Of a DNA stretch of 64,000 nt, positions 1,361-22,796 are shown in pieces. Position numbers and translations under genes: made by a program. Location: positions 129,270 through 193,269 of the forward strand of contig JBAXOX010000001.1 in assembly GCA_037133015.1 (NCBI GenBank). The letters are read 5' to 3'. Source of the stretch: Acidobacteriota bacterium. Its GTDB lineage: Bacteria; Acidobacteriota; Vicinamibacteria; Vicinamibacterales; JAKQTR01. The notes below the pieces were generated by a model. It saw only the letters and a program-made list of their open reading frames with translations. It searched no databases and was not told where the DNA came from. Each line of letters begins with the position of its first letter. Within the stretch, counting starts at the first letter, position 1.

Positions 1361-2068
1361 ATGAAGCTGTCGGTGATCATGCCCGTCTACAACGAGCGTC
1401 AGACGATCGACGAGATCGTCCGGCGGGTGCTCGCCGTCAAGCTGCCGTCGCTCGACCGCGAATTACTGATCATCGACGATGGATCCACCGACGGCACCCG
1501 GGACATCATCGCGGGGATGGATGGACGGGACGGCATCCGCGTGGTGCTGCAAGCTCGAAACCTCGGCAAAGGGTCGGCGGTGGCCCGCGGCGTTCGCGAA
1601 GCCGTCGGCGACATCCTGATCATCCAGGATGCCGACCTCGAATACGACCCGGCCGAATTTCCGATCGTGTTGCGGCCAATTCTCGCGGGCGAAGCCGACG
1701 TGGTGTTCGGGTCGAGATTTCTCGGCACCCCGTCCGGCCACCGCGTGCTCTACTTCTGGCACTTCGTCGGCAATCGGGCCCTGACGCTGCTCTCGAACGC
1801 CTTCAGCGGATTGAACCTGACCGACATGGAGACCTGTTACAAGGCCATGACCAGGCAGGTCGCCGTGCGCCTCGACCTGCGGTCGCGGCACTTCGGCGTG
1901 GAGCCAGAAATCACGATCAAAGTGGCGCGGTTGAGGGCGCGCGTGTTCGAAGTGCCGATTTCGTACTACGGCCGGACGTACGAAGAGGGCAAGAAGATCG
2001 GGCTCAAGGATGCCTTCCAGGCCCTGTGGACGGTGCTGCGCTACGCGTGGTGGAAAGCGCCGAAGTAG
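1361..2068 (+). CDS. GT2 glycosyltransferase, DPM1/GtrB-like polyprenyl-phosphate sugar synthase type (235 aa)
   Basis: Internal ATG of ORF 263..2068. Motifs 'VIMPVYNE', 'IIDDGSTDGT', 'IIQDADLEYDP' (DxD). Size and layout fit soluble dolichyl/polyprenyl-P-hexose synthases. Confidence 0.85.
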   Translation: MKLSVIMPVYNERQTIDEIVRRVLAVKLPSLDRELLIIDDGSTDGTRDIIAGMDGRDGIRVVLQARNLGKGSAVARGVREAVGDILIIQDADLEYDPAEFPIVLRPILAGEADVVFGSRFLGTPSGHRVLYFWHFVGNRALTLLSNAFSGLNLTDMETCYKAMTRQVAVRLDLRSRHFGVEPEITIKVARLRARVFEVPISYYGRTYEEGKKIGLKDAFQALWTVLRYAWWKAPK

Positions 2069-3312
2069 ACGACCACCCTCACCAGGACGACGACGCCGTT
2101 GTCGCCGGCGAACTCCAGGTCGACAACTCCGGTAAATCCTGCAGCCGGTTGCCAGCAGAAAGTGCCAGCCTCGCCGTCGAAACGCGATCCGAACGGCAGC
2201 CCCATCCGCTCACCCGCACGCACTTGGTACCCGGCGTACCGCACGCGCCCGGCCTGCGGCAGTGTCACGTCAACGTCGTCTTCCGGGTCGATCTCGACGA
2301 GGCGGATTCCAGTCCGATCGGGCCACACCAACTGCCGCACGCCGCCGCGATGGAGGACGGCGACCGGATCGGCGGCGATGCCTTCGACCCTGGATGCGAG
2401 CGACGAGTCTGGTTCGACGCCATTGCCCGGAGCCCGCGGCGCGCAGGGTTCGTCGCGGGACGGCAGAATCGCCTGTGCCGTGCCCGTCATCGGATCAATC
2501 GAGCCCAACTCCACGCCCGCGGCCGCGCAAGCTGGCGGGATGCCACTCGCACTGGGTAACGCCGCGCGAACCGCTGGCGCGCCTTGCGCTCGACGCGGTG
2601 GTGCCAGAACCGTAGAGGAGTGTGCCGCTGTCGCCAGTCCGGCGACAGACCCGTTTCCAGGAACGTCGAGCGTGAACCGAGACGGTTGATCGGCAGTTCT
2701 GCCCATGTCTGCGGTCGGCTCGCCCACCGGGGAAGCCGTGGCGGCTTGCTGTTGGAGATCCTGCCCGCGAATGACGCCCGCCGCGACAGGCGCGATCGGC
2801 ACCGGCTCCAACTCCCGGCGCTGCCTGGTCTGATCAAGTTGCGCCACCTGATGGATCTGGTCGCCCAGGTAACGAACCGTGAACACCGCGTCGGGCATGG
2901 TGATCGTGCCCGTCATGACGCCGTTGACGCAGGCCAGTGTCACCGAACTTCCCTCAACGCCCTGCACGTGACCGACCCACGTGAGACCGCCCTCGGCCGG
3001 GTCGATGCGGTCGGCCACCGCGGCCACCGCCAGATCGTCGAACAGATTGATCAGCAGGGCCGGCGCGACGGCCGTGGAACGATCGTCGGGCCGCGCGGCC
3101 AGCAGTGCGGCCATGTCGATCGCAACCTCTCGCGATCGCATCACGTCGGGGCCTGGCGCGCCTGGATCGGTGGCGACGTGCGGCGCCGTGACGAACAGGA
3201 TTCCGGCAAGCGTCCGCGCGCGGAAGGCCGACAGCCCCGGCTCGCTCGCCAGACACGCGGCGAGCATCGCGACCGCCAACCTCGGGCGCCTTCCCGATAG
3301 CCTGCTTGCCAT
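2041..3312 (-). CDS. secreted hypothetical protein; N-terminal region paralogous to the pro-region of the metzincin at 5960..8977, but with no HExxH domain
   Basis: ORF 2041..3354. ATG at 3312 gives a signal-like N-terminus 'MASRLSGRRPRLAVAMLAACLA'. About 110 aa align by eye with the protease N-terminus ('LINLFDD..AVADRID..GGLTWVGHV..SSVTLA..VMTGTITMPDAVFTVRYLG..IHQVAQLDQ'). Its 3' end overlaps the convergent GT2 gene by 28 nt. Confidence 0.55.
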   Translation of the reverse strand: MASRLSGRRPRLAVAMLAACLASEPGLSAFRARTLAGILFVTAPHVATDPGAPGPDVMRSREVAIDMAALLAARPDDRSTAVAPALLINLFDDLAVAAVADRIDPAEGGLTWVGHVQGVEGSSVTLACVNGVMTGTITMPDAVFTVRYLGDQIHQVAQLDQTRQRRELEPVPIAPVAAGVIRGQDLQQQAATASPVGEPTADMGRTADQPSRFTLDVPGNGSVAGLATAAHSSTVLAPPRRAQGAPAVRAALPSASGIPPACAAAGVELGSIDPMTGTAQAILPSRDEPCAPRAPGNGVEPDSSLASRVEGIAADPVAVLHRGGVRQLVWPDRTGIRLVEIDPEDDVDVTLPQAGRVRYAGYQVRAGERMGLPFGSRFDGEAGTFCWQPAAGFTGVVDLEFAGDNGVVVLVRVVVYFGAFHHA

Positions 3313-3469
3313 GGCAGCTCCAACACACAATCCGGACGGGGGTGCCTCGACCAATGGGGCCTATTGTCACACGGCGTGCGGCCGCGGCGATGCTGGCGTT
3401 TCCGCGCGCCGTCGCCCAGGATCCAGATGGGGCCAGCGGCGTCGACCTTATGGTACCGTGGTGGGACTC

Positions 3470-5890
3470 ATGATCTGGCGCCCCACCAGCCGACCCGATT
3501 CACGCACCGCCGTCGCGACCGTGGTTTCGTCCTGCCTTCGTCGCGTCGGCTGGCCGGTGGCCGCCGCGCTGGTGCTCGGCGTCCCCCTCGTCATCACGCT
3601 TGCCGGGAGCGTGCCGAACACGATCGAAACCGACGTGGCTCCGCGGCTGCCGGCCTGGCCAATCGAGTCGGTCGCGCTGGGCACCAAGGTGCTTCCCGAC
3701 GGCACCACGCTGGCGGGTGGGCGCCTCGACATGGTCAGGCCCGAACCGATTGTGCGGCACGAAGAGCTTCTGTTGGCCATGGAGCTGTACGGATCGTCGC
3801 CGGCGCTCGTCGAAGCCGAAATCCAGATTCGTGGCACCGATTGCGTGTACCGGACCGAAGCCGGGGCCGCTCTTGCGGCGGGGCAGTACCTGTCGTTCCA
3901 TCGCGGACGCATGTGCGGCCACGTGCTTCACGGACCCGCCAACGGGCAACTGGCGTTGCGACTGGTGTACCGAGGCGGCAACCGCATCGGCGTCATGGCG
4001 TCGAGAGCGCCCGCGGGCTCGGCAGACCAGGGTTGGATTTCGGTTCCGATGGCCACCACGCAACAGGATGGGCGAGTGGCGGTGGCATGGGCACGGTACC
4101 GAGACAGCTATCTGGGCGGTGCCCGGAGCCGGGCCGAGTTGCTCGCCTATGTCTGGCAGCTGTCGAATTCGACGCGCTGGGTATGGCTGGCCGTTGCGTG
4201 TGCGCTGTTCTGCGTGTGCGCCGGCGGGATGCTGCTGTCGATTGGCGCGTCGGCCTCAGGGCCGTTGAACGTTTCGGGCATGTTCGGTGTGTCGTGCGGC
4301 GTGGCGGCCGTAAGCCTGGGACTTGCCGTGCTGTACGCATCGCTCGTCCCGCCTTTGCAGGCGCCTGACGAGCCGGATTTCTTCCTGGCGTTCGCCGAGG
4401 TCGCGAATCGGCCGGCGCTCGCCGTCCAGACCGCGGAGCTGGGGAGAACCGGCCATCTCGCCCGGATCATGTTCCACGACGACCAGCGAGTGCGCCCGTA
4501 CGACGTCGGGCGGCCCTTCGACCAACCCTGGTTGTCCAATGTGAATCCTCCGCCACCCGGGACCAACAGTGTGATCGCGGCATTCTGGTGGACCCGGCTG
4601 GCGGGGCTGGTGGCGTCAATGGAAGCGCCCGGGGCACTGCTCAGCGTGCGGCTTGCGAATGCGGCACTGTTCGCCGTGTGCCTCGGCGCGGCCACACTCA
4701 TGCTGCTGGTGGTATTGGCTGGCGAGGTCACGTCGCCCCAGTTGATCGCTCTGACGCTCTTGCTCGTGCCGACGCTACCGTTTTTTGCGATGTACGTGTC
4801 GGAGTTTGCGATCCAGGCATCGGTGTACGCCTTCCTGGCTGCCGTCGCGGCGGGTCTCTTTCTCGATACCAGGCGCGGGTACCTGCTCGGATTTCCCCTT
4901 GGGATCGGAAGTGCCCTGGCGCTGGCGTCCGGCAGAAATGCGCTGCCGTACATGGCGGTGGTCGGAGCCTTATGCGTGGGACGCGCGGTGCTCGGCACAC
5001 CAGACGATCGGGCGACCTGGTCAGATTGGCGAAGAACAGGATGGTTCTGGCTGGGGCTGGCTGGCGGCTTTGCGCTGTATCCCCTGACTTCGACCTCGGG
5101 ATTCGTTCAGGGATTATGGACGCCGGATGCGGTCGGCGTGTCCGATCGATTCAGAACGGCGGCCGAACTGCTGCGGCGACACCCCTGGCTGCTTGTCGGT
5201 GCCGTGCCGTTCGGGTTCGTCCTCGAGCGAGCCGCGGCTGTGGTTCGCCGGAAGCTCGGGCCGCCGCCGACGGCCGCATTGACGTTGGTTCGTGTGCTCG
5301 CCTACGGCGCCGCGACCTCTGTGGCCCTGAGTTTGGCCGTATCGGTGTTCGCCCGGTATCCCCAACTGTCGAACGTGGACCTGGCCCGACCATCGTCGGT
5401 CAGAGAATACGTCTCACGCGTGATGGGTGTCGCGGTGAGCGGGTTCCGCCTGACCAATCACGACCTGTACCTGTCGTCGTGGTTCTGGGGCGGGTTCGGA
5501 TGGGTGGACACGATGCCGGGCACCGGGTTCGTCTCGCTGCTGGTGCTGCTGGCCGCGGCGGGCGCGATCGGCACGCTCGCGTCTATTGCCCGAACGCGGC
5601 AGATTCGTCGGGCGCTGTGGCTCGGCGCACTGATGGCCGGGTGGGGCGTTGCGCTCGGCGGGTACGCGGCTTCGACCTACTACCTGCACCGGAACTTGCA
5701 CGGCCGCTACGTCGTCGCCCTGTACCTCGTCACGCTGGGCGTCTGCTGGAGCATCGTGGCGTGGCTTCCCCGAACGGGGCTGTCCGGGCGATTCCGGAGG
5801 TTTGCCGCCACGCGCGAGTGGGCGCTGCTGATCCTGATCGCGGCGGTTCATGCCTACGCGCTGCGATTCATCCTCGTGCGGTATTTCTAG
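3470..5890 (+). CDS. polytopic membrane protein, DUF2142-like / GT-C-like, with an extra N-terminal anchored extracytoplasmic domain (806 aa)
   Basis: Internal ATG of ORF 2981..5890, followed by a TM segment. More than 10 hydrophobic segments. 'APDEPDFFLAF' and 'WGGFGWVDTMP' resemble the motifs I associate with DUF2142 membrane proteins; this is from memory and needs an HMM check. Confidence 0.55.
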   Translation: MIWRPTSRPDSRTAVATVVSSCLRRVGWPVAAALVLGVPLVITLAGSVPNTIETDVAPRLPAWPIESVALGTKVLPDGTTLAGGRLDMVRPEPIVRHEELLLAMELYGSSPALVEAEIQIRGTDCVYRTEAGAALAAGQYLSFHRGRMCGHVLHGPANGQLALRLVYRGGNRIGVMASRAPAGSADQGWISVPMATTQQDGRVAVAWARYRDSYLGGARSRAELLAYVWQLSNSTRWVWLAVACALFCVCAGGMLLSIGASASGPLNVSGMFGVSCGVAAVSLGLAVLYASLVPPLQAPDEPDFFLAFAEVANRPALAVQTAELGRTGHLARIMFHDDQRVRPYDVGRPFDQPWLSNVNPPPPGTNSVIAAFWWTRLAGLVASMEAPGALLSVRLANAALFAVCLGAATLMLLVVLAGEVTSPQLIALTLLLVPTLPFFAMYVSEFAIQASVYAFLAAVAAGLFLDTRRGYLLGFPLGIGSALALASGRNALPYMAVVGALCVGRAVLGTPDDRATWSDWRRTGWFWLGLAGGFALYPLTSTSGFVQGLWTPDAVGVSDRFRTAAELLRRHPWLLVGAVPFGFVLERAAAVVRRKLGPPPTAALTLVRVLAYGAATSVALSLAVSVFARYPQLSNVDLARPSSVREYVSRVMGVAVSGFRLTNHDLYLSSWFWGGFGWVDTMPGTGFVSLLVLLAAAGAIGTLASIARTRQIRRALWLGALMAGWGVALGGYAASTYYLHRNLHGRYVVALYLVTLGVCWSIVAWLPRTGLSGRFRRFAATREWALLILIAAVHAYALRFILVRYF

Positions 5891-5959
5891 AAACCGGATT
5901 CACCCCGGTTCCACCCGCCTCCAGGATCGCGCGGAGCACTCGCCGATCGCGCCGCGCAC

Positions 5960-7345
5960 TCACCGATCGCTCGGCGTGCACCCGGGCGCCGGTCCGGCCG
6001 AAATCAAGATGCCGCTGTTCAGTGCGATGTACATGGTGCAGTCGGGGAACGTCACCTTGCCGTTGACGATCGTGTACGTCGCGCCGTTGTAGGTGAGCGT
6101 CGTGCCGCTCACCGACCCGGTAGCGGGCCCACCGTTGCCTGGGCCGACAAACGTGCTTCCGCCGCTGCTGCTCCCGCTCGAACTGCCGCCGCTACTGCCG
6201 CCGCTACTGCTGCCGCTGGAGCTCCCCGAACTGCTGCCTCCACTGGAACTCCCGCTGCTGCTGCTGGGCGTGCAGCCGGCTGCCGTTCCCGCCGAGATAA
6301 GAATGCCGCTGTTGAGCGCGATGTACATCGAGCAGTCGGGGAACGTCACCTTGCCGTTGACGATCGTGTACGTCGCGCCGTTGTAGGTGAGCGTCGCGCC
6401 GTTGACCGAACCGGTTGCCGGCCCACCGGTGCCCGGCCCGGCAAACGGCGTGGCGCCGCTGCTGCCGCTGGAACTTCCGGTGCTGCTCCCGCCACTGGAA
6501 CTCCCACTGCTGCTGGTCGAACTCCCGCTCCCGCTGCTTGAACTGCTTGAACTGCTCGTGCTGCCGCCGGTCGGAGTACAGCCCGCCGCGGGGCCAGCCG
6601 AAATCAGGAGGCCGCTGTTGAGCGCAATGTAGGTCGAGCAGTCGGGGAACGTCACCTTGCCGTTGACGATCGGGTACGTCCCGCCGTTGTAGGTGAGCGT
6701 GGTGCCACTGACCGAACCGGTCGCCGGTCCGCCGTTGCCCGGGCCAACAAACGGCGTGCTCCCGCCGCTGGTGCCGCTGGAACTTCCGGTACTGCTCCCG
6801 CCACTGGAACTCCCACTGCTGCTGGTCGAACTCCCGCTCCCACTGCTTGAACTGCTCGTGCTGCTGCCGCCACTCGAACTGCCGCCACTCGAACTGCCGC
6901 TACTGCTGCTGCCCCCACTCGGCGTACAACTCGCCGCAGGGCCAGCGAAGATGAGGACCCCGCTGTTGAGCGCAATGTAGGTCGAGCAGTCCGGAAACGT
7001 CACCCGTCCGTTGACCAGCGTGTAGGTCGCCCCGTTGTAGGTCAACGTCGTGCCGCTCACCGACCCGGTAGCCGGACCGCCACTGCCCGGGCCGACGAAT
7101 GCGGGCGTGCCACCGCTGCTGCTGCCGCTACTGCTGCTGCCCGTGGCTGGCGTGCACGTCGCGGCGCCCGAGGGAATCAGGATGCCGCTGCTGAGTGCGA
7201 TGTACGTGGAGCAGTCGGGGAATGTCACTCTGCCGTTGACGAGCGCGTAGGCCACCCCGTTGTAGGTCAAGGTCGTGCCGCTCACCGATCCGGTGGCCGG
7301 GCCGCCGGTGCCCGGGCCGACGAATCCGCTGCCAGACCCGCTGCA
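5960..7345 (-). repeat. coding tandem array: 5 copies of the ~57-60 aa 'GPxxGGP..TYNG..VTFPDC..GCTP' module plus poly-Ser/Gly linkers
   Basis: Read directly from the translation of 5960..8977. Antisense shadow ORFs in the track tile the array once per copy. Confidence 0.9.
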
Positions 7346-8977
7346 CGCGCAGGTCGACGAGCCGGTCACCACCAGGGCGACCGAAGCGGTCGCCGTCGAA
7401 TACGTCACGGCGTTGGTCGGCGTAAACGTCGTCGACAGGGTCTGCGTGCCCGCCGTCAGCACCGATCCCGCCGCCGGACTGTAGACGAACGTTCCCGCGA
7501 CGTTTGCCGTCGCGTTGAGTTGCGTGGCGCTCAACACGGTCCCCGCCGCGACCGAGGCCGGAGTGGTCCACGTGATCACCGGCGCGAGGCGAGCCGCCTG
7601 GCGGAAATTCGCAACCGTGTACGCCGTGTTGTTGAGCGCCCGGTGATCGTCGGCATCACACGAATCATTCGTCGTGCTGCCTTTCGCGCAATCCGATTTG
7701 GTGCCGCCGGCAATGCCCATCGGCGCGCTTCCGTACGCCCCCGGCGAGCTGACGGCGGGATTCGACCAATACAGCAACCGCGTGCAGTTCCTGCCCGAAC
7801 CGAGCACGGCGGGACACAGGTCGTTGTACGACATCACCGTGCGAAATCGGTTCGTCGGATCCACGTAGCCGTGCGCATACGTGTAGGGCGTCGTCTGGGA
7901 ATCCACGTACCAGTCGTGCCGTGCGCCCATGTTGTGGCCCAGTTCGTGCGCAAACGAGTAGTTCGGGCTGATGCACGACTGTTCCACCACGCTGAACCCA
8001 TAGGGCGCGAACCCGCTCGACACCGACGACATCAGCCACGCGATGCCGCACCCATTGGGGCTGGCGGGCGAGGTGACCAGCATCACCAAATCGGCACCGT
8101 ACGAGGTGCGCAGCGACGCGGCCGACGCGCCCACCGCGGTGGTCACGAACGAGGACCCATCGTAATTGCTGACGGCGTAGAGATCCGTCGCGAGATCGTT
8201 GTTCTCGCTATAGATGACCTGCTGGCTGTTCGCCAGGCGCAGGCGTTGGGTAATCCCGCTATTGAGATAGGACGTGTTGGCTTCGCTGATTCCCAGGTTG
8301 ATGCGGCTCGTGATGGCCGACGTGCCGCCAGCCGCGGTCGCAGCCGCCGGGGTATAGAGCACCAACACGTCGATGATCGTCCCATCGTCATTCATCGCGA
8401 GCGGGGCGGTCGCGTCCTGCATCGCGGTCTGCCCTGGGTCCATCGGAGCGACGGCGATGGGATCCAACTCCGGCAGGTATTTCGACTGATCGACTTGCGC
8501 CACCTCGTGGAGGCCGTTTCCGACGTATCGAATGGCGTAGACCGCATCGGGCATCACAATGCTGCCCGAGACGATGCCATCCACCGAGGCCAGCGTGACG
8601 TTGCTCAACGCAACGCCGGGAATGTGCCCAACCCAGGTGAAGCCGCTCTCCATCTGATCGATGCGGTCGCGCACCGCGGCAAACGACGTGTCGTCGAAGA
8701 CGTTCAACACGAGGGAAGGCCGCGCCGACATGAGAACATCGACCACACCAGGATCGGTGAGCGCCATCGCGTCGATGACGACGCGCCTCGACCGAATCAC
8801 GGCGGCCCGTCCGTTCGCGGCGGCGCGCAGCGTCGGTTCGGGCGTCTCGAGGAACAGCCCGCCCATGCCGTGCTGCGACTGGCCGCCCGACCACGTGGCA
8901 TGTCCGCGCAGACCGAAGGCCGAACCCGCAAGCATCAGGATGCCGACACCGACGATGGCCGACCTGCCGAAACGCAT
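5960..8977 (-). CDS. secreted reprolysin-like (M12B metzincin) zinc metalloprotease with one MBG-like domain and 5 C-terminal two-Cys modules (1005 aa)
   Basis: ATG at 8977 preceded by GGAGGAG. Signal peptide 'MRFGRSAIVGVGILMLAGSAFG'. Metzincin motif 'HELGHNMGARHD' (~7921-7956). C-terminal half is 5 module copies joined by Ser/Gly linkers. Confidence 0.85.
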   Translation of the reverse strand: MRFGRSAIVGVGILMLAGSAFGLRGHATWSGGQSQHGMGGLFLETPEPTLRAAANGRAAVIRSRRVVIDAMALTDPGVVDVLMSARPSLVLNVFDDTSFAAVRDRIDQMESGFTWVGHIPGVALSNVTLASVDGIVSGSIVMPDAVYAIRYVGNGLHEVAQVDQSKYLPELDPIAVAPMDPGQTAMQDATAPLAMNDDGTIIDVLVLYTPAAATAAGGTSAITSRINLGISEANTSYLNSGITQRLRLANSQQVIYSENNDLATDLYAVSNYDGSSFVTTAVGASAASLRTSYGADLVMLVTSPASPNGCGIAWLMSSVSSGFAPYGFSVVEQSCISPNYSFAHELGHNMGARHDWYVDSQTTPYTYAHGYVDPTNRFRTVMSYNDLCPAVLGSGRNCTRLLYWSNPAVSSPGAYGSAPMGIAGGTKSDCAKGSTTNDSCDADDHRALNNTAYTVANFRQAARLAPVITWTTPASVAAGTVLSATQLNATANVAGTFVYSPAAGSVLTAGTQTLSTTFTPTNAVTYSTATASVALVVTGSSTCACSGSGSGFVGPGTGGPATGSVSGTTLTYNGVAYALVNGRVTFPDCSTYIALSSGILIPSGAATCTPATGSSSSGSSSGGTPAFVGPGSGGPATGSVSGTTLTYNGATYTLVNGRVTFPDCSTYIALNSGVLIFAGPAASCTPSGGSSSSGSSSGGSSSGGSSTSSSSSGSGSSTSSSGSSSGGSSTGSSSGTSGGSTPFVGPGNGGPATGSVSGTTLTYNGGTYPIVNGKVTFPDCSTYIALNSGLLISAGPAAGCTPTGGSTSSSSSSSSGSGSSTSSSGSSSGGSSTGSSSGSSGATPFAGPGTGGPATGSVNGATLTYNGATYTIVNGKVTFPDCSMYIALNSGILISAGTAAGCTPSSSSGSSSGGSSSGSSSGSSSGGSSGGSSSGSSSGGSTFVGPGNGGPATGSVSGTTLTYNGATYTIVNGKVTFPDCTMYIALNSGILISAGPAPGCTPSDR

Positions 8978-9034
8978 ATCTCCTCCTGCCCCGATGTGTC
9001 TCGCCCGCAGGAACCGTAATAGGATCGATTCTAC

Positions 9035-9050
9035 GCTCGGCGCTCGCAAA
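9035..9050 (-). promoter_or_regulatory. candidate sigma-54 (-24/-12) promoter for the metzincin gene
   Basis: Minus-strand sequence CGGCAT-GCGTT-TTGCG has GG-N10-GC spacing. It matches the consensus TGGCAC-N5-TTGCW except at 3 flanking positions. The -12 element lies about 58 nt upstream of the ATG at 8977. Confidence 0.4.
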
Positions 9051-9119
9051 ACGCATGCCGAAGTGCATATTGGGCGTGCAAGGCGCAGAAGTACGAAATA
9101 CTTGGCCCGTCGCAAGACC

Positions 9120-10013
9120 ATGACACCCACATTGTCCGTCGTGATCGTCAACTACAACGCCGGAGCGTATCTGCAACGATGCCTCCAGTCGCTCGTCGCC
9201 CATCTCGGGTCGGTCGAGTGGGACGCGATCGTGCTCGACAACGGGTCGCGCGATGGCAGCGAGGCGGTGGCGGAGGCAATGGGGCCCCGGGTGCGGCTGG
9301 TGCGACACACCGAGAATCTTGGTTTTGGCCGGGCGGTCAATCAGGGCGTGTCTGCGACGTCGGGGCGCGTCGTGCTGCTGTTGAATCCCGACGGCTGTTT
9401 GCGGCCCGGCGCAGTCGAGCAGTTGTGCGAAGAGTTGGAGGCGCATCCCGATTGCGCCGTGGTCGGTCCGGCGGTGGTCGATGAGGACGGGGGGATTCAG
9501 GGCAGCGCCAGAGGTGACCCCGATATGCTGACGGGCTTTTTCGGCCGATCGACGTGGCTGACGCGACGGTTTCCCAATGCCGCGTGGGCCCGCAGAAACG
9601 TGATGACGACGCCAGCGCTGGCGATTGGCGAGTCGAGCGTCGACGTCGACTGGGTCAGCGGATCGTGCATGCTCGTGCGGCGCGATGCCTTCGTGCAGGC
9701 CGGGGGCTTCGACCAGCGCTACTTCATGTACTGGGAGGATGCGGACCTGTGTCGGCGGTTGCGTACCGCGGGATGGCGCATTCGCTATCGTCCCGATGCG
9801 CGCGTCGAGCACGCAGTGGGGCAGTCGAGTCGGCAGGCGAAGGCGCTGTCGATTCGGGCCTTTCATCGCAGCGCGTATCTCTACTACGCCACGCACGTTG
9901 CGCCGTCCCCGCTCAATCCCCGGCGGTGGTTGGCGTACGGCTTGTTGCGGGTGCGTTGCCTGTGGCGGCTGAGTCGCGGCCTCTCCCCCGCGGCCAAGCG
10001 GTCACGCGCGTGA
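9120..10013 (+). CDS. GT2 family glycosyltransferase (rhamnosyltransferase-like, 297 aa)
   Basis: Internal ATG of ORF 8661..10013. Motifs 'SVVIVNYNAGAYLQRCLQSL', 'VLDNGSRDGS', 'WVSGSCMLVRRDAF', 'FMYWEDADLCRRL'. Confidence 0.85.
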   Translation: MTPTLSVVIVNYNAGAYLQRCLQSLVAHLGSVEWDAIVLDNGSRDGSEAVAEAMGPRVRLVRHTENLGFGRAVNQGVSATSGRVVLLLNPDGCLRPGAVEQLCEELEAHPDCAVVGPAVVDEDGGIQGSARGDPDMLTGFFGRSTWLTRRFPNAAWARRNVMTTPALAIGESSVDVDWVSGSCMLVRRDAFVQAGGFDQRYFMYWEDADLCRRLRTAGWRIRYRPDARVEHAVGQSSRQAKALSIRAFHRSAYLYYATHVAPSPLNPRRWLAYGLLRVRCLWRLSRGLSPAAKRSRA

Positions 10014-10086
10014 ACCGAGACGAGGAGACTCGCGGCGATGCTGTGAGTCCCGACTCCACTCAACTCGTGGCGATCGTGGCGCTCGC

Positions 10087-11571: not shown

Positions 11572-11862
11572 CCGATCGCGGTGCACGTCTGTCTGCCTTC
11601 GACCGGCGCGGCATTTCACTTCGCTGCGTTTCTCAACGCTCACATCTTCGAGAGATCATCGCGGACCGCGGACCGCAAAACGCGGATCGCGCCGTGCGAT
11701 CCGACGCATCGACGCTCTCGGTGCGACGACCGACTTCGACCGCGTGTTGCCGGGCGCGAGTTCCGGAAATCCGTCGCTTTTTCGTCCGAACCGCCAGAGC
11801 GTCGCGCCTCCACGCGCCCCAACACGACTCGTTCGGTCCTGGCTCGCAAACCCTCGAGTGTC

Positions 11863-11878
11863 TGGCACCGCAATTGCT
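11863..11878 (+). promoter_or_regulatory. sigma-54 (-24/-12) promoter, near-perfect consensus
   Basis: TGGCAC-CGCAA-TTGCTA against consensus TGGCAC-N5-TTGCW. It sits on the coding strand ~270 nt upstream of the ATG at 12146, in a 574-nt intergenic region. Confidence 0.6.
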
Positions 11879-16130: not shown

Positions 16131-16153
16131 TCGTCTGGCTCGACGCCAGCAGG

Positions 16154-17938
16154 CTACTCCGAGATCTCCAACCGGAATCGGCGAACGCGGATCTGGCGGC
16201 TCGCGCACGTCTCGCGCACCTGCGCTTCGCGGCCGGCGTCGATGGCCGCCGTGCTGAAGACGACCTCGCCGATCCGGTACCGTTCCAGCACCCACTCGAG
16301 CGTGTCGGCCCCGCCCCGCACGGGAACGCCCATCAGGCGCCGGCGAAGTTTCGCCTCGTCATCATCGAGAAACGCCACCGGCGTGAGGTTCCATTCCCGA
16401 TTAGCCCGCATCTCCCGCACCAGCAACTGGCCGGCCGACCCGGCCCCATAGATGAGCGCGCGGTTGGCCCGCGTGTTGCCCAGCGCCGCGGCTTCTCCCA
16501 TCACGCGAAACGACGCGCGCACACCGACGAGGGCCAGTGTCAGCAGCGCGGCGTCAATCAGAAACACGCCGCGCGAAAATCGTTCGAACCGGTAGAAGTA
16601 CGCCGCCGCGAAGATCGACGCCACCGATCCCAGCAGCACGCCTCGGACGATGGCGAACAGATCGTGGAGGCTGAACGACCACCACATCCGGTCGTACACG
16701 CCTGCCACGTGCAGCGCCAGCAGCTTGCAGCCCAGAATGACGGGCAGCGAAAGCGTGAACATGGGCAGGAAATTGTCGAGCGCCTCGCCCTCGAATCGGA
16801 GGCGGTACGAGCCGTAGAGCACCGTCGCGATCACCACCACGTCGAGCAGCATCTCGATGGCATGCCAGCGGAAGGTGATGTCTCGAAGAAACGGCGCGAA
16901 ACTCGCCTTCTGCAACGCCTGAAAGTCTTCTCCGTCGTACGCCGGCACCCGGGCCAGATACACGCCCCCCAGGACGATGGCCACCAGAAACAGCGCCGCG
17001 ACCGGCATGCGCGCCAGGCCATTGGCATGCATCAGCCAGGCCGTCGCGCTGCCTGCGACCGCCACGCCGTACAACGTCGCCACCGACGCGCGCTCGCTCA
17101 GCCCCAGCGATACCAGCCGGTGCGAGACGTGATCGGTGCCGCCGCGTGTCGCCGCCCGTCCCGCCAGCCGCCGCACCACCAGCACGAACGAGGTGTCCAG
17201 CAACGGCACCACCAGCACCAGCACCAGAATAAGGGCGTCGAACAACAGCGACCCGCCAGGGCGAACCAGCACGGCGAGCGACGTGCCCGCGACCACCGAT
17301 CCGAGAAACAGGCTTCCGCAGTCGCCCATGAACAGGCGCGCCGGCTTGACGTTCCAGACCAGAAAGCCCGCGATGGCCCCGGCCACAGCCATCAGCGCGA
17401 CGGCGAAATCCGGCCCGAGCACGCCGCCAAACAGGACCGACAGGCCCAGAACCGCCGCCAGCGCCACGCCTCCGGCCAACCCGTCCATGTTGTCGAGGAG
17501 ATTGAAGGCGTGGACCACGCCCGCATACCAGACCACCAGCACGATCGTCTGCCACCAGGGAACGATGGCGTGCGCCACCACGACGAGTCCAAACAGGACG
17601 AACGCGCCGACCACCAGCGTGGCCACCAGTTTGGTGAGCGGGGTGAGCCGCAGCCTGTCGTCGAAAAACCCGACGACGAAGAGGATGCCCGAGGCCGTCA
17701 GCACCATGCCCGCCTGGGGCCAGCCCCCGCTCGCGCCCCACACCGCCAGCGCGACCAGTGTCGCCGCGGTCGTGCTGACCGCCATAGCGACGCCGCCCAA
17801 CGTTGGCGTGGGCGCCTGGTGCCATCGATCGGGGCGAGGTGGGACGACAGCCCCGAGGCGGGTCGCCACGCGGCGAACCGCAAAAGAGAGGAGGACCGAC
17901 AGCGCGAAGCCGACGGCAAACACAACCGGGAGCGTCAT
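16154..17938 (-). CDS. WecA/MraY-family polyprenyl-phosphate HexNAc-1-P transferase fused to a C-terminal 4-TM + CoA_binding_3-like module (594 aa)
   Basis: ATG at 17938 (internal to ORF 16154..18112). PNPT motifs 'FNLLDNMDGLAGG' and 'FMGDCGSLFLGS'. The C-terminal half carries 'ALIYGAGSAGQLLVREM...VAFLDDDEAKL...GVPV', typical of the N-terminal part of WbaP- or PglF/CapD-type proteins, with no further catalytic domain. Confidence 0.8.
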   Translation of the reverse strand: MTLPVVFAVGFALSVLLSFAVRRVATRLGAVVPPRPDRWHQAPTPTLGGVAMAVSTTAATLVALAVWGASGGWPQAGMVLTASGILFVVGFFDDRLRLTPLTKLVATLVVGAFVLFGLVVVAHAIVPWWQTIVLVVWYAGVVHAFNLLDNMDGLAGGVALAAVLGLSVLFGGVLGPDFAVALMAVAGAIAGFLVWNVKPARLFMGDCGSLFLGSVVAGTSLAVLVRPGGSLLFDALILVLVLVVPLLDTSFVLVVRRLAGRAATRGGTDHVSHRLVSLGLSERASVATLYGVAVAGSATAWLMHANGLARMPVAALFLVAIVLGGVYLARVPAYDGEDFQALQKASFAPFLRDITFRWHAIEMLLDVVVIATVLYGSYRLRFEGEALDNFLPMFTLSLPVILGCKLLALHVAGVYDRMWWSFSLHDLFAIVRGVLLGSVASIFAAAYFYRFERFSRGVFLIDAALLTLALVGVRASFRVMGEAAALGNTRANRALIYGAGSAGQLLVREMRANREWNLTPVAFLDDDEAKLRRRLMGVPVRGGADTLEWVLERYRIGEVVFSTAAIDAGREAQVRETCASRQIRVRRFRLEISE

Positions 17939-18136: not shown

Positions 18137-19072
18137 CTACGCCAACGGACCCGTCACGCCGCGCAGGCCGTCCCACACGCCGCGCGCCATCATCCGGAGC
18201 CGGCGCAGTCGGTGCGGCGTAAAGATGGGATACACGATCGCCATGAACAGCAGGCGTTCCAGATCGTTGTAGACCCACCGCCATGTGGCATGCGGCATCC
18301 GGAACAGGACGAAACTGTTGCGAAACACGTAATAGTTGCGCTCCGGGCTGTGGATGGGCACGTGGCGCCAGCGTCCCAGCCAGAAGCGCAGCGTGCCGCC
18401 TCCCAGGCTGTGCTCCATCAGCGCGTTGCACACGCCGAACGATCGGTAGCCGCGAAACTTCGCTCTGAAGATCCACTCATCGTCGACGTGGTCGATAAAG
18501 AACGCTTCGTTCATGCCGCCGACCTCGGCCAGCACGTCCATCGGGATCAGAGCGCCCGATGTGATGAGCAGGTCGGTCTCCAGCGTATGATCCGGTTGCG
18601 CGGCATCGCAGAAGACCTGCTGGAGCTTGAGCCAGCCGAGTCTGACGAACCCCGACATCGACCCGCCGTAACTATCCACCCGGCGCGGCCCCACCGCAGA
18701 CACCTTGAGGTGGGCGGCCTGGAGGCGCGCAAGCGCAGTCGACAAGTGCCGCACCATGTCGGGCCGGGGAATGCTGTCGTGATCGAGCAGCAGCACGTGC
18801 GTAAAGCCGCGGTCGCGTGCCCACGCGATCCCGCGATTGTGTCCACCGCCGAGTCCGAGGTTCGACGCCAGCCGGAGACACGTAATTCTGGCGCGCTCGT
18901 CGTCGGAAAGGCTGGCCAGCAGGGCATCTGCCGACCAGCCGGATCCGTTGTCGATGATCAGGATGTGCTCGACCTGCTGGCACAGCGAGACGATCATCTT
19001 CCGGAGCGTTGCGTCGTCTGGCCCGAAGGCGAGCACCAGTGCCGCGATCCGGTCCGGCTCGGGCCGACTCAT
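18137..19072 (-). CDS. GT2 family glycosyltransferase (rhamnosyltransferase-like, 311 aa)
   Basis: ATG at 19072 overlaps the upstream stop (ATGA). Motifs 'ILIIDNGSG', 'LGLGGGHNRG', 'LLLDHDS', 'DDEWIFRAKFRGY'. Confidence 0.8.
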   Translation of the reverse strand: MSRPEPDRIAALVLAFGPDDATLRKMIVSLCQQVEHILIIDNGSGWSADALLASLSDDERARITCLRLASNLGLGGGHNRGIAWARDRGFTHVLLLDHDSIPRPDMVRHLSTALARLQAAHLKVSAVGPRRVDSYGGSMSGFVRLGWLKLQQVFCDAAQPDHTLETDLLITSGALIPMDVLAEVGGMNEAFFIDHVDDEWIFRAKFRGYRSFGVCNALMEHSLGGGTLRFWLGRWRHVPIHSPERNYYVFRNSFVLFRMPHATWRWVYNDLERLLFMAIVYPIFTPHRLRRLRMMARGVWDGLRGVTGPLA

Positions 19073-19839
19073 AGCCCGGGCTGGCGTCCGGGCTGTGCCG
19101 CCAGATCCTCGTAGCAAGCGAGCCCGTCCTCGACGGCCCCGTCGAACAGGATCCGCCCGCGATCGAGCACCAGGACGCGGTCGCAGATCTCGCGCACCGA
19201 CTTGGGCTCGTGCGAGACGAAGAGGATGGTCTTGCCGCGCCGCTTGAAGTCGGCGATCGTCTGCACGCACTGCTGCTGGAAATCGGCGTCACCCACCGCG
19301 AAAATCTCGTCGAGCAGCAGGATGTCCGGATCCAGGTTGGCAGAAATCGCAAAACCAATCCGCATGTGCATGCCCGACGAGTAGTTCTTGATGGGCACGT
19401 CCATAAAGTGTTCGAGCCCCGAGTACTTGACGATCGCCGGATAGATCGACGCAGTTTCGGCGCGCGACAGCCCGTGAATCGAGGCGCTCAGAAACACATT
19501 CTCGCGGCCGCTCAGTTCGTTCTCGAACCCGACCCCCAGCTCGATCATCGTGCCGATGCGTGCGTCGCGGGGCACGAACAGATGACCCGAGGTGGGGCGG
19601 TAGATGCCGGCGACCAGCTTCAGGAACGTGCTCTTGCCGGATCCGTTCCGGCCGACCAACCCCACCGTTTCGCCCCGGGCGATCGAGACCGACAGTTCGC
19701 GCACGGCCCAGAACTCCTCGATCGACTCGCGCTTGTTCTCGTGGAACAACGCCAGAAAGCGCACCTTGAGCTCGGCCGCCTCGTTGTGGCGCAGCAGGAA
19801 TCGTTTCGACAGGTCTTGAGCGACGATGCCGCCGTCCAT
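19069..19839 (-). CDS. ABC transporter ATP-binding protein, polysaccharide/teichoic-acid exporter type (Wzt/TagH-like, no C-terminal glycan-binding domain)
   Basis: Walker A 'GRNGSGKST', signature 'YSSGMHMRIGFA', Walker B 'ILLLDE', H-loop 'FVSHE'. The start overlaps the permease stop (TGATG). Confidence 0.9.
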   Translation of the reverse strand: MDGGIVAQDLSKRFLLRHNEAAELKVRFLALFHENKRESIEEFWAVRELSVSIARGETVGLVGRNGSGKSTFLKLVAGIYRPTSGHLFVPRDARIGTMIELGVGFENELSGRENVFLSASIHGLSRAETASIYPAIVKYSGLEHFMDVPIKNYSSGMHMRIGFAISANLDPDILLLDEIFAVGDADFQQQCVQTIADFKRRGKTILFVSHEPKSVREICDRVLVLDRGRILFDGAVEDGLACYEDLAAQPGRQPGL

Positions 19840-20657
19840 CAGAGTTGCTCCGAGAGCCGGTCTTGCATGGCCAAAAAGAACCGCATGCCGACCAGCATCG
19901 CGCCGAACCCGTAGGCCATCCCGACCAGCCAGACCTCTGCCGAGGGCCACTGGCGATAGTAGAAGATGTCCTGGTAGGCGACGATGAACGACGAGAGCGG
20001 GCTCAACAGGATGAACGGCCGCCACTGGCCAGGCACCTGCGCCAGCGGATACACGATCGGGGTCACCCAGAACAGGATGGGCAACGCCACTTCCAGCAGG
20101 TGCCGGACGTCGCGGAAAAACACCGTGCCTGCCGCCAGCACCATCGACACGCCGACCGTGAAGAGCACCTGGAGGCCGAGAAACACGGGATAGAGCAGCA
20201 TCGGCGCGCAGAGCGGTACGCCCTGCACCACCAGCATCAGCGGCAGAAACACCACGATCGTCAGGACGAACTGCGCGAGATTGAAGAGGACCGTCGCGAT
20301 GGGGAGCACCGCCGGCGGAAAGCGGACGCTCTTCATCAGGTTGTCGTTATCGGTAATCGACCGGGTCGCCATGTTGGCTGAGCCGACGAAGAAGCCCCAT
20401 GGGAGGATGCCGAGCAGCAGAAAAAAGACGAAGCCTTCGACTTTCGACCCGAGGATGTACTTGAAGGCGACCGTGTAGACGCCGATCATCACCAGGGGAT
20501 TGAGCAGCGACCAGAGAAACCCGAGCACCGAGCCGCGGTACTTGAGCTTCAAGTCCTTGAGGACGAGGTTGGTCAGCAGCTCCCGGTGGCGGGCGAGCCC
20601 GGTAATCGTGCTCCAGATTGTCGCGCGCTCGGCAGCGCGGTCCACCATGTCGGTCAT
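19839..20657 (-). CDS. ABC-2 type transport permease (Wzm/TagG-like)
   Basis: 'LKLKYRGSVLGFLWSLLNPL' N-terminal signature and 6 hydrophobic segments. Lies directly upstream of the ATPase. Confidence 0.9.
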   Translation of the reverse strand: MTDMVDRAAERATIWSTITGLARHRELLTNLVLKDLKLKYRGSVLGFLWSLLNPLVMIGVYTVAFKYILGSKVEGFVFFLLLGILPWGFFVGSANMATRSITDNDNLMKSVRFPPAVLPIATVLFNLAQFVLTIVVFLPLMLVVQGVPLCAPMLLYPVFLGLQVLFTVGVSMVLAAGTVFFRDVRHLLEVALPILFWVTPIVYPLAQVPGQWRPFILLSPLSSFIVAYQDIFYYRQWPSAEVWLVGMAYGFGAMLVGMRFFLAMQDRLSEQL

Positions 20658-20855
20658 GTCGAGTCCGACTGCCCTTCGACTCAGTTGGGTTGGGGAAAAC
20701 CCCGACCCCGCCCAATCGTCTGCCGCAATCGCCCAGGGGACCGCGGCCTGCCCAACACAGGTGAGCGCGGGGTTAGACTATCATGGGCTCGTTGCGGCGA
20801 GCATCATCGAGTCCGGCCCCGGGCCGGGAGGCTGTGCCGGCAGGAAGGTCGCGAC

Positions 20856-22796
20856 GTGTCCCTGGCGTGGTTGGTGGTGGCATTGGCGCTTTGCGCGGTG
20901 ACGCTTCTGCGTCCGCGGGTTGCGCTGCTCGCCCTGCTGGCCGCCTTTCCGTTCTTCCTCCACAAGTCCGCCAGCCCATGGGAACTGCGGCTGCTCCTGC
21001 TGGTCACCGCCTTCGAGGTGGCCTACCTGGCGCGCGTGCCTCGGCGGTGGTTTGCGTTTGTCGCCACCCTGAGGCGCGATCCCCTGATGTTCCTGGTGGC
21101 GCTCTACGTGGCGGCATCGGCCCTCAGCTTGTCGTCCCTGCCGCTGTACACGCTGGTGGCCCCGCACCTCCGGGTCTTCGCGATCGTGCCGTTCGATCAC
21201 TGGCCCTACGAGCTGACGCAGTTGCTGACGCTGGACGAACGCGCCGGCGAGTATTCGATCCTCTCCGTCCTGTTGACGGCCCAGGCGTTCGTCTTCGCGT
21301 TGATCGTGCGGCGGGAACTGCTTCGCGCGCCGCGGCTGTTCGTGCACGCTGCGTGGGCTCTGACCGCGGGCGTCGCTGTTGCCACGGTGGCGGGCCTCGT
21401 CGAGTTCTACGGTCTGACGTCGCTGGTCTGGCTGCGCGGACCTGGCGCGGCGAATTTTCTCCAGGACGTCCCCATGCGGCTCCAGTCGGTTACGGGCAAT
21501 CCCGGCTGGTACGCCGAGTACGTGGTGCTGACGCTGCCGTTTGCGGCATCCCTTCTCCTGCCGGGCAGAGCCTGGAGATGGCGGGCTGGCGTGCTCGCGT
21601 TCCATCTCGTCCTGGTCCAGGCTGCCATGTTCCTGTCGTTTCAGCGGGGCGGCTGGATCGCGTCGTGGGTGGTGCTGGCGTGCCTGTGGGTGGCCCTGGC
21701 ATGGCAGCCCTCCCGCGCCGCCGGTGGCCGTGTCCGCGCCCTGGTCGCCAGGTTCGTCCCCGCGGCGATGCCGGTGGCGCTCTGTCTTCTGGTCCTGGCC
21801 GGTCTGCTCTACGGATCGATGCGGCTGGGGCTGCACCCGGCGGGCACGGCCGCGGTCGGCATGTACACCGACCGGGTCGAAGGGATCGCGCGCTCGTCGG
21901 ATCGGGTGCCCTACATGCGGGCGGGATTTGGCATCGGCATCCTGCATCCCATTCTCGGCGCCGGCAGCGAGTCGTTCGCGCTGCGGTACATCGAGTACTA
22001 CCTCACGTCGAACGGCCCGTACGCCGTCGACCCGGTTCACGTGGTCACCCCGACCAGTGCCCACAATGTCTACGTGCAGACGTTTGCGGGCAAGGGGGCT
22101 GTGGGCCTCGTGCTGCTGCTCGCTGTGTGCGGGACGGGGCTGTGGTTGATTGCGCGGCGCAGCGCGGCGTCCGCCTCGGCCGGCCGGGAAACGGTCGTCG
22201 GCCTGGTGATGGCCGGGATCGCGCTGGTCGGGTTTCTCGTCTACGGCGTCGTGCAGGAAGTGTTCTACGTCCACGTGCTGCAGCTATTGGTGTTTTTCCT
22301 GCTGGGATCGATTGCGGCCATCACCGATGGCACGCTCCAGTGGCCGCCCGCGCTGCAGCGTCGGCTCGTCGCCGTCCTGGCGCTCTGCTTCGTGCTGCAC
22401 CTCGGCTATGAGCACGTCTACCCGGGGCCGTCGCGCTTGATCCGGGCGTTCGAGCCACAGGGGATCTTCGCGGGCGACGAGGGTCCGGCTGGCGATCAGT
22501 TCCGCTGGAGCGCCGACCGGGTCGTGTTTCCGATTCCGCCAGGCTCGTCGTCTTTCGATCTCAGTGTGCGGTCTGCCGCGCCAGCCGGCCAGACGGTCAC
22601 CGTCATCGTGTGCGGCGTCGAGGGCGGCGCCTACGCGGTTGACGATCGCGAATGGCATCGGCTGCGGTTTCTCCTGCCGCGGTCGGATCTGCAACAGCAA
22701 AAACCCACCGTGGAAATCGACGTCGCCCCGCCGATGCCGCCAGGCGCCGACGGGCGGGCGCGAGGCGTGATGGTGCGGCAGTGGGACTTCCGGTAG
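20856..22796 (+). CDS. O-antigen ligase-like (Wzy_C domain) membrane protein with a ~170-aa C-terminal soluble domain (646 aa)
   Basis: GTG at 20856 preceded by GGAAGG. At least 10 TM segments. 'SAHNVYVQTFAGKGAVGL' matches the conserved His-containing periplasmic loop of WaaL/PglL/Wzy_C proteins. The start is uncertain. Confidence 0.65.
   Translation: MSLAWLVVALALCAVTLLRPRVALLALLAAFPFFLHKSASPWELRLLLLVTAFEVAYLARVPRRWFAFVATLRRDPLMFLVALYVAASALSLSSLPLYTLVAPHLRVFAIVPFDHWPYELTQLLTLDERAGEYSILSVLLTAQAFVFALIVRRELLRAPRLFVHAAWALTAGVAVATVAGLVEFYGLTSLVWLRGPGAANFLQDVPMRLQSVTGNPGWYAEYVVLTLPFAASLLLPGRAWRWRAGVLAFHLVLVQAAMFLSFQRGGWIASWVVLACLWVALAWQPSRAAGGRVRALVARFVPAAMPVALCLLVLAGLLYGSMRLGLHPAGTAAVGMYTDRVEGIARSSDRVPYMRAGFGIGILHPILGAGSESFALRYIEYYLTSNGPYAVDPVHVVTPTSAHNVYVQTFAGKGAVGLVLLLAVCGTGLWLIARRSAASASAGRETVVGLVMAGIALVGFLVYGVVQEVFYVHVLQLLVFFLLGSIAAITDGTLQWPPALQRRLVAVLALCFVLHLGYEHVYPGPSRLIRAFEPQGIFAGDEGPAGDQFRWSADRVVFPIPPGSSSFDLSVRSAAPAGQTVTVIVCGVEGGAYAVDDREWHRLRFLLPRSDLQQQKPTVEIDVAPPMPPGADGRARGVMVRQWDFR

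Follow-up and report, generated by a model that had tools for sequence, protein, structure and literature searches.

A candidate ABC-transporter-dependent envelope polysaccharide locus with divergent GT-C enzymes and embedded secreted proteins in an acidobacterial genome

Introduction

The 64,000-nucleotide stretch of an Acidobacteriota bacterium (GTDB lineage Vicinamibacteria, Vicinamibacterales; GenBank assembly GCA_037133015.1, contig JBAXOX010000001.1, positions 129,270 to 193,269 of the forward strand), here referred to as the window and numbered from its first base, contains in bases 1361-22796 three GT2 glycosyltransferases, two divergent membrane enzymes of the GT-C type, a WecA-type initiator, a Wzm/Wzt ATP-binding cassette (ABC) exporter and a Wzy_C-family protein, as determined by Pfam and NCBIfam scans and predicted folds. 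Acidobacteria are a major, little-studied phylum of soils and sediments. A preliminary description of this DNA had proposed that the cluster is dedicated to the O-glycosylation, or to the surface anchoring, of the large Ser-rich proteins embedded in it, and had named an ordinary ABC-dependent pathway ending in a WaaL ligase as the default alternative. The latter was found to fit better, and we would give an even chance to the following reading: an ABC-transporter-dependent envelope polysaccharide locus, with decoration by periplasmic GT-C enzymes, a WaaL-like ligase and secreted enzymes that travel along with it.

Among the described systems, streptococcal loci for rhamnose cell-wall polysaccharides contain DUF2142 proteins, with one genotype that is without DUF2142 and GT2 together, and they also carry an ABC exporter (PMC9746298). 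The window resembles the ABC-dependent O-antigen and rhamnan loci (streptococcal rgp/GAC) and the GtrA/GtrB/GtrC systems in the WecA-type initiator, the rhamnosyltransferase GT2 and Wzm/Wzt, and in the combination of a GT2 similar to polyprenyl-phosphate-sugar synthases with a DUF2142-like polytopic protein. Unlike in those systems, the host is diderm, the window has no GtrA-like flippase or rml gene, a Wzy_C protein is present, neither GT-C protein reaches a curated hidden Markov model (HMM) threshold, and large secreted enzymes are interleaved with the glycan genes.

The pgf cluster of Streptococcus mutans encodes a GT-A enzyme, a GT-C enzyme of the YfhO type and, inside the cluster, its own Ser/Thr-rich disordered targets (PMC12041528). 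Together with GtrB/PgtC2, this Pgf system (PgfS, PgfM1, PgfE and PgfM2, with Cnm/CnaB/CbpA) is the published one closest to the linker O-glycosylation initially put forward. The likeness consists of a GT-A synthase combined with a periplasmic GT-C enzyme, of Ser/Thr-rich putative targets encoded inside, and of a sub-threshold match of the window synthase-like enzyme (GT2a) to PgfS. The window differs in that its GT-C enzymes are not of the YfhO type, no match to a PgfE-like epimerase is found in the cluster by Pfam, Ser-richness is not conserved in orthologues and a full polymer export pathway is present.

The chemistry proposed for the window is also similar to that of actinobacterial Ppm1 and Pmt (GT39), in which a polyprenyl-phosphate monosaccharide is the donor for a GT-C enzyme with an acidic motif in its first periplasmic loop. 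However, the window proteins are below the PF02366 and PF13231 thresholds, the second GT2 (GT2b) is not Ppm1-like, and the best structural neighbour of the PMT_2-like protein is ArnT, which modifies lipid A. With respect to PglL/PilO and WaaL, the window protein has the Wzy_C domain and is a polytopic membrane protein; unlike PglL, it has no PglL_A and its gene lies beside exporter genes and is not co-oriented with a target. It carries an extra C-terminal beta-domain that is common to acidobacterial relatives.

The locus and the proposed pathway

Pfam and NCBIfam scans covered the long open reading frames (ORFs) within bases 1-23000, and gene starts were mapped afterwards. Every gene named in the preliminary description was found, at its coordinates or within a few codons of them, as was the position of two of the four poly-Ser-linker proteins (5960-8977 and 12146-16024) between glycan genes. 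Nine glycan-pathway genes are found among 13 genes in 21 kb, an arrangement that is not due to chance.

What the analysis shows are the gene families, the predicted folds and the synteny; the following order of steps, the sugars, the ligation and the roles of unkN and the metzincin are inferred. The WecA-type transferase (16154-17938, minus strand) would prime the polyprenyl-phosphate carrier, on which the chain would be built by a cytoplasmic GT2 of the TIGR01556 family (18137-19072, minus strand) and by GT2b (9120-10013, plus strand), to be exported by Wzm (19839-20657) and Wzt (19069-19839, both on the minus strand). GT2a (1361-2068, plus strand) would make a polyprenyl-phosphate monosaccharide to be used by the periplasmic GT-C enzymes that extend or decorate the glycan, namely the DUF2142-like protein (3470-5890, plus strand) and, among the compared loci only in this genome, a rare PMT_2/ArnT-like protein (10093-11571, plus strand). 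The Wzy_C protein (20856-22796, plus strand) would ligate the product in a WaaL-type reaction, and a secreted protein that we call unkN (12146-16024, plus strand) would act on the exported glycan.

On the best reading, unkN and the second large secreted protein of the cluster, a protease (5960-8977, minus strand), belong to the locus through their N-terminal enzyme domains and not through their linkers. Proteins with the N-terminal domain of unkN (approx. 550 residues, 12146-13810) form a family of 161 members, most of them from metagenomes of Acidobacteria/Vicinamibacterales, and the domain lies within a glycan locus in all of the eight contexts available (the window and loci L001, L042, L043, L047, L050, L051 and L052). 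Four of these (L047 and L050 to L052) contain distant homologues of the N-domain, 42-55% identical, and neither these homologues nor their loci contain the two-Cys module of the window proteins or any Ser/Thr-rich tract (maximum, 48% Ser + Thr per 25-residue segment). Thus, the glycan genes are tied to the enzyme domains (unkN and the metzincin) rather than to modules or linkers.

In L047 (unkN, 6210-9998), the neighbours are a DUF2142-like gene, a GDSL lipase, Wzy_C and an epimerase; in L051 (unkN, 10001-11992), epimerases, UDP-glucose dehydrogenase, DegT, a carbamoyltransferase, Wzm and Wzt. L050 (unkN, 10001-12628) encodes GT2, GT4, a PNPT enzyme with CoA_binding_3, Wzm, methyltransferases, a secreted protein of 1140 residues, unkN, a Peptidase_M10 of 1018 residues and a Wzy_C protein of 638 residues, so that PNPT with CoA_binding_3, Wzm, unkN, an M10 metzincin and Wzy_C repeat the architecture of the window without modules; its three secreted proteins have in common a different set of C-terminal domains. 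L052 (10001-12739) contains Bac_transf, epimerases, a fusion of GT2 with unkN and, at the locus edge, a reprolysin gene. Two of the 161 family members are fused to a GT2, and in L052 the fusion runs through transmembrane segments, which supports the action of unkN on an exported glycan. No Pfam model matches unkN and a profile search against the PDB gave only noise, while the C-terminal domains of the family vary (Big_7, fn3, BACON); from its contexts, the N-domain is probably a periplasmic glycan-processing enzyme.

Glycosyltransferases, initiator and exporter

GT2a, a soluble enzyme of 235 residues (Glycos_transf_2, E = 1.8e-31), is the only one of the GT2s that looks like a polyprenyl-phosphate-sugar synthase of the DPM1/GtrB/AglJ/ArnC/PpgS type. 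All five of its best NCBIfam matches (AglJ, ArnC, PpgS, PgfS and a dolichyl-phosphate-hexose transferase) are such synthases, as the initial assignment to DPM1/GtrB-like enzymes would have it, although their scores (56-121 bits) are far below the equivalog cut-offs. Its orthologues in L001, L030 and L042 are 79-88% identical and have the same hydrolase alongside; that of L036 is 68% identical over a longer six-frame ORF.

GT2b is adjacent to the PMT_2-like gene, as had been noted, but this GT2/GT-C pair amounts to an adjacency. A role as a Ppm1-like partner of that GT-C enzyme was rejected: its matches are chain-building GT2s (MftF, EpsD, rhamnosyltransferase) and GT2b persists beside unkN without the GT-C enzyme in L001 and L042, where it lies directly upstream of unkN with no GT-C gene in between.

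The initiator expected of an ABC-dependent pathway is found in the WecA/MraY-type polyprenyl-phosphate sugar-phosphate transferase (Glycos_transf_4, 2.4e-27, with a weak match to TIGR02380, wecA), which has a C-terminal CoA_binding_3 domain (2.1e-10). This domain usually belongs to WbaP-type Bac_transf enzymes. Its fusion with Glycos_transf_4 is also present in L001 (19773-21557), L048 (312-2189) and L050 (1456-2949), so that a WecA/MraY-type initiator with this domain recurs in acidobacterial glycan loci.

The exporter is formed by an ABC-2 permease of the Wzm type (ABC2_membrane, 3.7e-14) and a Wzt-type ATPase without a Wzt_C domain (ABC_tran, 1.1e-19), encoded by adjacent, overlapping genes. 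The third GT2 passes the cut-off of the rhamnosyltransferase family TIGR01556 (206 bits versus 200.55). The Wzm, Wzt and rhamnosyltransferase genes overlap start-to-stop, the start of the GT2 gene overlapping the stop of Wzt. A scan for promoters and terminators gave results no better than those for shuffled sequence, and operon structure was therefore judged from gene orientation and gaps only.

The two GT-C-like membrane proteins

Searches of Pfam, NCBIfam and PDB sequences at E ≤ 10 gave no direct match for either the 806-residue protein encoded at 3470-5890 or the 492-residue protein encoded at 10093-11571, and their DUF2142 and PMT_2 labels are therefore based on transitive homology and on the predicted fold. 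For the former, 30 homologues were found, the closest labelled Acidobacteria bacterium, and six of 28 match DUF2142 (PF09913; best, 2.6e-11). An invariant APDEPxH motif lies right behind a transmembrane helix. In the AlphaFold2 (AF2) model (pLDDT, 88.7), an N-terminal transmembrane helix is followed by a beta-sandwich in the periplasm and then by a membrane domain of several helices, and Foldseek returned weak but specific GT-C matches (EmbA/B, 3.9e-3; Pmt4 at probability 1.0). The designation as a DUF2142/GT-C-like protein thus holds indirectly, through homologues and predicted fold and not through an HMM match of the protein itself. The predicted beta-sandwich (residues 46-215, window 3608-4114), inserted behind the first transmembrane helix and ahead of the GT-C core, has only weak jelly-roll and tail-spike-like Foldseek matches. 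Homologues with 33-42% identity are found in contexts with glycosyltransferases, epimerases, PNPT, MBOAT and Wzy_C, and no Ser/Thr-rich proteins are encoded near them.

The PMT_2-like family has 17 homologues in 5.8 billion proteins, and of the 16 that were scanned three match PMT_2 and one PMT, all weakly (best, 8.8e-6). Behind the first transmembrane helix, in the first periplasmic loop, a YFADDF motif is found in which ADD is invariant. With the AF2 model (pLDDT, 86), the top Foldseek match is ArnT (E = 5.6e-7; TM, 0.55), followed among others by PglB, AglB, STT3, Pmt4, DPY19 and AftA; a profile search of the family against the PDB gave only noise. The 'ADD' loop of the PMT_2/GT-C-like protein initially placed at 10087 (start, 10093) is present, and the label holds indirectly, through fold and homologues; the protein itself matches neither PF13231 nor PF02366. 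According to the model the protein has a GT-C fold, which would fit a lipid, a glycan or a protein acceptor alike, and lipid-modifying (ArnT) as well as protein-modifying GT-C enzymes are among its fold neighbours. Both window proteins show the polytopic fold and the acidic motif in an early periplasmic loop (ADD and PDE, respectively) of GT-C enzymes, as well as the Foldseek matches; by Pfam scans, neither of them belongs to the YfhO or GT39 families.

The Wzy_C protein

PF04932 (43.5 bits) is the sole Pfam match of the 20856-22796 protein, even at E ≤ 10, and assigns it to the WaaL/PglL superfamily. The PglL_A domain (PF15864) was introduced by Schulz et al. to separate PglL from WaaL, and pglL genes are usually located outside lipopolysaccharide loci and adjoin their targets (PMC3643930). 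No PglL_A match was found in the window protein at E ≤ 10, and its gene is divergent from that of Wzm, with an amidase gene next to it, a location different from that of PglL-type enzymes. The PglL side of the initial PglL-versus-WaaL question is thus disfavoured by domain signature and by the Wzm/Wzt neighbourhood. An extracytoplasmic C-terminal domain of approx. 130 residues is common to the Wzy_C proteins of the window, L030 and L050; the likeness of the window protein to the other two lies mainly in this domain, whereas between those two the relationship is clear.

The protease, its paralogue and the two-Cys modules

The 5960-8977 protein is a secreted metzincin of the reprolysin/Mep72 type (Reprolysin_4/5/3 matches; NCBIfam Mep72, 113 bits, below the cut-off), with one Ig-like repeat and five two-Cys modules separated by Ser/Gly linkers. 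It ends with CTPSDR and has orthologues in L001, L030, L036 and L042. The secreted protein encoded at 2041-3312 (minus strand, divergently oriented), without a Pfam domain, is a paralogue of the N-terminal (pro-)region of the protease and has no catalytic domain (phmmer, 2e-35 against the 5960-9151 ORF). This paralogue is kept in L030, L036 and L038; L001 has a small ORF in its place, and L042 has no counterpart. Its C-terminus (…TFCWQPAAGFTGVVDLEF…) resembles, by eye, the C-termini of the secreted proteins of L047 and L050. The two embedded genes each form a transcription unit of their own, in that the protease gene faces one of its neighbours and points away from the other, and unkN starts after a gap of 575 bp. 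The unkN protein was recognized as secreted from its signal peptide; its N-domain is followed by a further region and by six two-Cys modules with poly-Ser linkers.

Overall, the four module proteins of the window contain 19 copies of a 58-residue module with two Cys (F-x-G-P-x2-G-G-P-x2-G-x-V ... G-[KR]-V-x-F-P-D-C ... C), 3-6 per protein and C-terminal in each, in arrays at 6000-7300, 14100-16000, 37600-39100 and 41650-42430. In all four, the linkers are of 18-61 residues and consist of 51-73% Ser and 21-36% Gly. There is no Pfam model of the module, and no Pfam match covers the module region. Of 1.84 billion representative proteins, 52 contain it. The module is attached to at least four unrelated N-terminal regions, metzincin and subtilase-like ones among them, and it was found on 38 metagenome contigs of 62-70% G+C (window, 64-70%). 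The scan of GTDB representative genomes returned one match only, which is archaeal and spurious, and for this reason the neighbourhood statistics come from metagenome contigs, which are not assignable to genomes. On the best reading, the modules and their Ser/Gly linkers are lineage-specific C-terminal appendages of many unrelated secreted proteins and are not specifically tied to glycosyltransferases.

Right past the last Cys, three of the four window proteins and those of L001, L030 and L036 end with T-P-[SG]-D-R (similar ends are found in L042 and L016), which may be a C-terminal signal; the protein encoded at 39511-42450 ends with CTPSDRRPIR. Three of the four module proteins contain Ig-like repeats with a conserved T-Q-L-N-A-T-A motif, including an N-x-T sequon (7300-7600, 36000-37600 and 41100-41650), which alternate with modules in relatives. 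As for the linkers, their Ser codons are mostly AGC/AGT, while outside the linkers three of the four genes use TCG most often for Ser. AGC and AGT are one transition away from the Gly codons GGC and GGT, and this fits the switches from Ser to Gly that are observed between orthologous linkers.

Close relatives and module genes elsewhere

L001, from an acidobacterial metagenome-assembled genome, has the gene order of the window, with a hydrolase, GT2a, a DUF2142-like protein (63% identical), the protease, GT2b, unkN, PNPT and a GT2, and without a PMT_2-like gene; its linkers are Gly-rich in the protease and of the (GTGG)n type in unkN. L042 has GT2a, the DUF2142-like protein, the protease, GT2b and unkN, again without a PMT_2-like gene, and its linkers are poly-Ser. 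L043 has GT2b, unkN and, between them at 1153-1842, a remnant of the PMT_2-like gene in which residues 2-68 are joined to 339-491 (approx. 69-338 being lost) while GT2b and unkN are intact; its linkers are poly-Gly and are accompanied by Ig-like domains. In L030 (with L036 and L038), the order is hydrolase, GT2a, secreted paralogue, protease, Wzy_C-family gene, amidase, methyltransferase and hydrolase, the last three being those found behind Wzy_C in the window. This arrangement includes neither the DUF2142-like gene nor any of the genes from GT2b to Wzm, and it retains the module-bearing protease with linkers of 73-88% Gly.

Protease and unkN thus keep their position among glycan genes in the close relatives L001, L042 and L043, and glycosyltransferase content varies while the protease stays. 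The orthologous linkers switch among Ser, Gly and Gly/Thr: in the window and L042 they are Ser-rich, L001, L030, L036 and L043 have linkers of Gly or Gly/Thr, and L047 and L050 have none, so that Ser/Thr-rich targets are not a conserved feature.

A survey of module-gene neighbourhoods elsewhere covered 33 further loci, whose flanks add up to 255 kb and contain 210 ORFs. No DUF2142-like gene was found at any of the 33 loci. The neighbours are heterogeneous (response regulators, ABC transporters, methyltransferases, few epimerases), and Glycos_transf_2 was found in three of 105 neighbouring ORFs in one half of the survey. A GT-C gene near the module gene was found in no more than two independent types of locus. 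One (L017, 2869-10854; L021 and L029) encodes two methyltransferases, a Wzx-like and a radical SAM/SPASM protein, a PMT_2 protein and, in addition, a relative of the PMT_2-like family; in the other (L024, 4235-6157), a GT-C enzyme with TPR repeats is divergent from the module gene. With loci so heterogeneous, and only these two types with a GT-C gene, co-localization with GT-C/GT2 pairs is not general to the module. The check suggested in the preliminary description was therefore negative, as no consistent GT-C/GT2 neighbours emerged, and a general association was rejected on these grounds.

Alternative explanations

Several observations weigh against an ordinary polysaccharide pathway, or at least are not accounted for by it. 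The window contains no sugar-nucleotide genes (e.g. rml) and no GtrA-type flippase, for which no ORF or Pfam match is found in bases 1-23000 with all coding space accounted for; the cluster ORFs also have no Polysacc_synt/Wzx match in Pfam. The DUF2142-like and PMT_2-like proteins are below every curated HMM threshold, and WaaL and PglL are not separable by sequence, although a WaaL-type role of the Wzy_C protein is the more economical reading. Nor is it evident what a metzincin would do in a glycan pathway. The two other types of module-gene locus that lie beside GT-C genes have to be added, along with the distribution of the linkers, which are rich in hydroxyl groups in loci with a DUF2142-like gene (window, L042 and the unkN of L001) and poly-Gly in those without (L030/L036).

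The latter correlation speaks for O-glycosylation of the linkers, in which the sugar from GT2a would be transferred by the DUF2142-like and/or the PMT_2-like GT-C enzyme to Ser/Thr. A synthase-like GT2 and two GT-C enzymes are indeed present, the PMT_2-like protein has the protein-modifying PglB, STT3, Pmt4 and DPY19 among its fold neighbours, all four window proteins have linkers with 51-73% Ser, and the S. mutans pgf cluster provides a precedent (PMC12041528). However, the correlation spans approximately four lineages, with the protease of L001, Gly-rich although the GT-C gene is present, as an exception. The PMT_2-like gene is dispensable, being absent in L001 and L042 and decayed in L043, a DUF2142-like gene is missing from all 33 further loci with module genes, and distant homologues of the DUF2142-like protein and of unkN are found in glycan loci without any Ser/Thr-rich protein. 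Moreover, the Ser codons of the linkers resemble drifting AGC/GGC simple sequence, protease and unkN are separate transcription units, and the GT-C enzymes are not YfhO or GT39 proteins. By taking all this into account, we consider linker O-glycosylation unlikely. What remains of a cluster dedicated to it is a functional connection of the embedded proteins with the glycan genes, as indicated by synteny and by the unkN homologues in glycan loci; this connection does not run via the Ser linkers, the modules or the PMT_2-like gene. If linkers were nevertheless glycosylated, the locus would be a Pgf/PMT-like system with its targets in the locus and with linker chemistry co-evolving with the transferase, and GT-A/GT-C O-glycosylation of Ser-rich disordered linkers would extend from Firmicutes and Actinobacteria to a diderm phylum. 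To our knowledge, no Pgf/PMT-like protein glycosylation system is known in this phylum.

An en bloc transfer to the linkers of the undecaprenyl-diphosphate-linked glycan exported by Wzm/Wzt, with the Wzy_C protein as an O-oligosaccharyltransferase of the PglL type, appears very improbable. Such a role would agree with its family and with the genomic context of L030, in which the Wzy_C gene is 180 bp from the module-bearing protease gene and divergent from it, and of L047 and L050, where Wzy_C genes accompany those of unkN and a metzincin; PglL-type enzymes modify flexible, low-complexity regions and often adjoin their targets (PMC3643930). Set against this are the absence of a PglL_A match at E ≤ 10, the position of the gene beside Wzm/Wzt, which in the view of Schulz et al. 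is a typical WaaL setting (PMC3643930), and the poly-Gly linkers of L030, which offer no acceptor. A diderm with an ABC-dependent O-polymer also needs a WaaL, for which the window contains no other candidate.

A further possibility, which we regard as rather unlikely, assigns the binding of the locus polymer to the two-Cys modules, which by analogy with the interaction between S-layer homology (SLH) domains and secondary cell-wall polymer would display the secreted enzymes on the surface with the linkers as spacers. The C-terminal position of the modules, their three- to sixfold repetition and their presence on at least four unrelated N-terminal regions are in line with it, as is the scattering of module genes over many loci, as expected of a general anchor; the two invariant Cys fit an extracytoplasmic disulfide, and the three secreted proteins of L050, with another common C-terminal set, suggest that this type of locus goes along with a shared C-terminal function. 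However, no similarity of the module to a known carbohydrate-binding module was found, with no Pfam match over its region, it is extremely rare (52 of 1.84 billion representatives), and L030 keeps the module-bearing protease though the exporter and most glycosyltransferases are gone. Both the anchoring through modules and the O-glycosylation of linkers are compatible with the ABC-transporter-dependent polysaccharide pathway proposed above.

Flanking genes

Upstream of the cluster, an alpha/beta-hydrolase is encoded at 50-1156 (minus strand, from ORF and Pfam scans). After Wzy_C, genes for the amidase, a methyltransferase, a hydrolase, Ppx and Ppk1 follow, the latter two (polyphosphate) being confirmed by Pfam in the flanks analysed (26760-30625 and 42663-49844). 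The third and fourth module proteins are located outside the cluster, both on the plus strand: the former (30869-39250) is of 2793 residues, with a subtilase-like N-terminus and many Ig-like repeats, as judged from its translation, and with five modules, and the latter (39511-42450), also read from its translation, is of 979 residues, with repeated beta-domains, Ig-like repeats and three modules. From translations, a block of minus-strand genes in the flank resembles membrane subunits of hydrogenase-4/formate-hydrogenlyase and, further downstream, several large ORFs resemble secreted peptidases of the M13, tricorn/S41 and M28 types.

Concluding remarks

If the ABC-transporter-dependent polysaccharide pathway is correct, the locus would encode an ordinary envelope-glycan pathway, yet one that includes several uncharacterized acidobacterial pieces. 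These are the secreted enzyme family of 161 members represented by unkN, two GT-C lineages that are invisible to current HMM libraries, a WecA-type initiator with CoA_binding_3, and a very rare two-Cys module on secreted proteases. The Ser and Gly linkers that are found among orthologues would in addition provide a natural comparative test of linker glycosylation.

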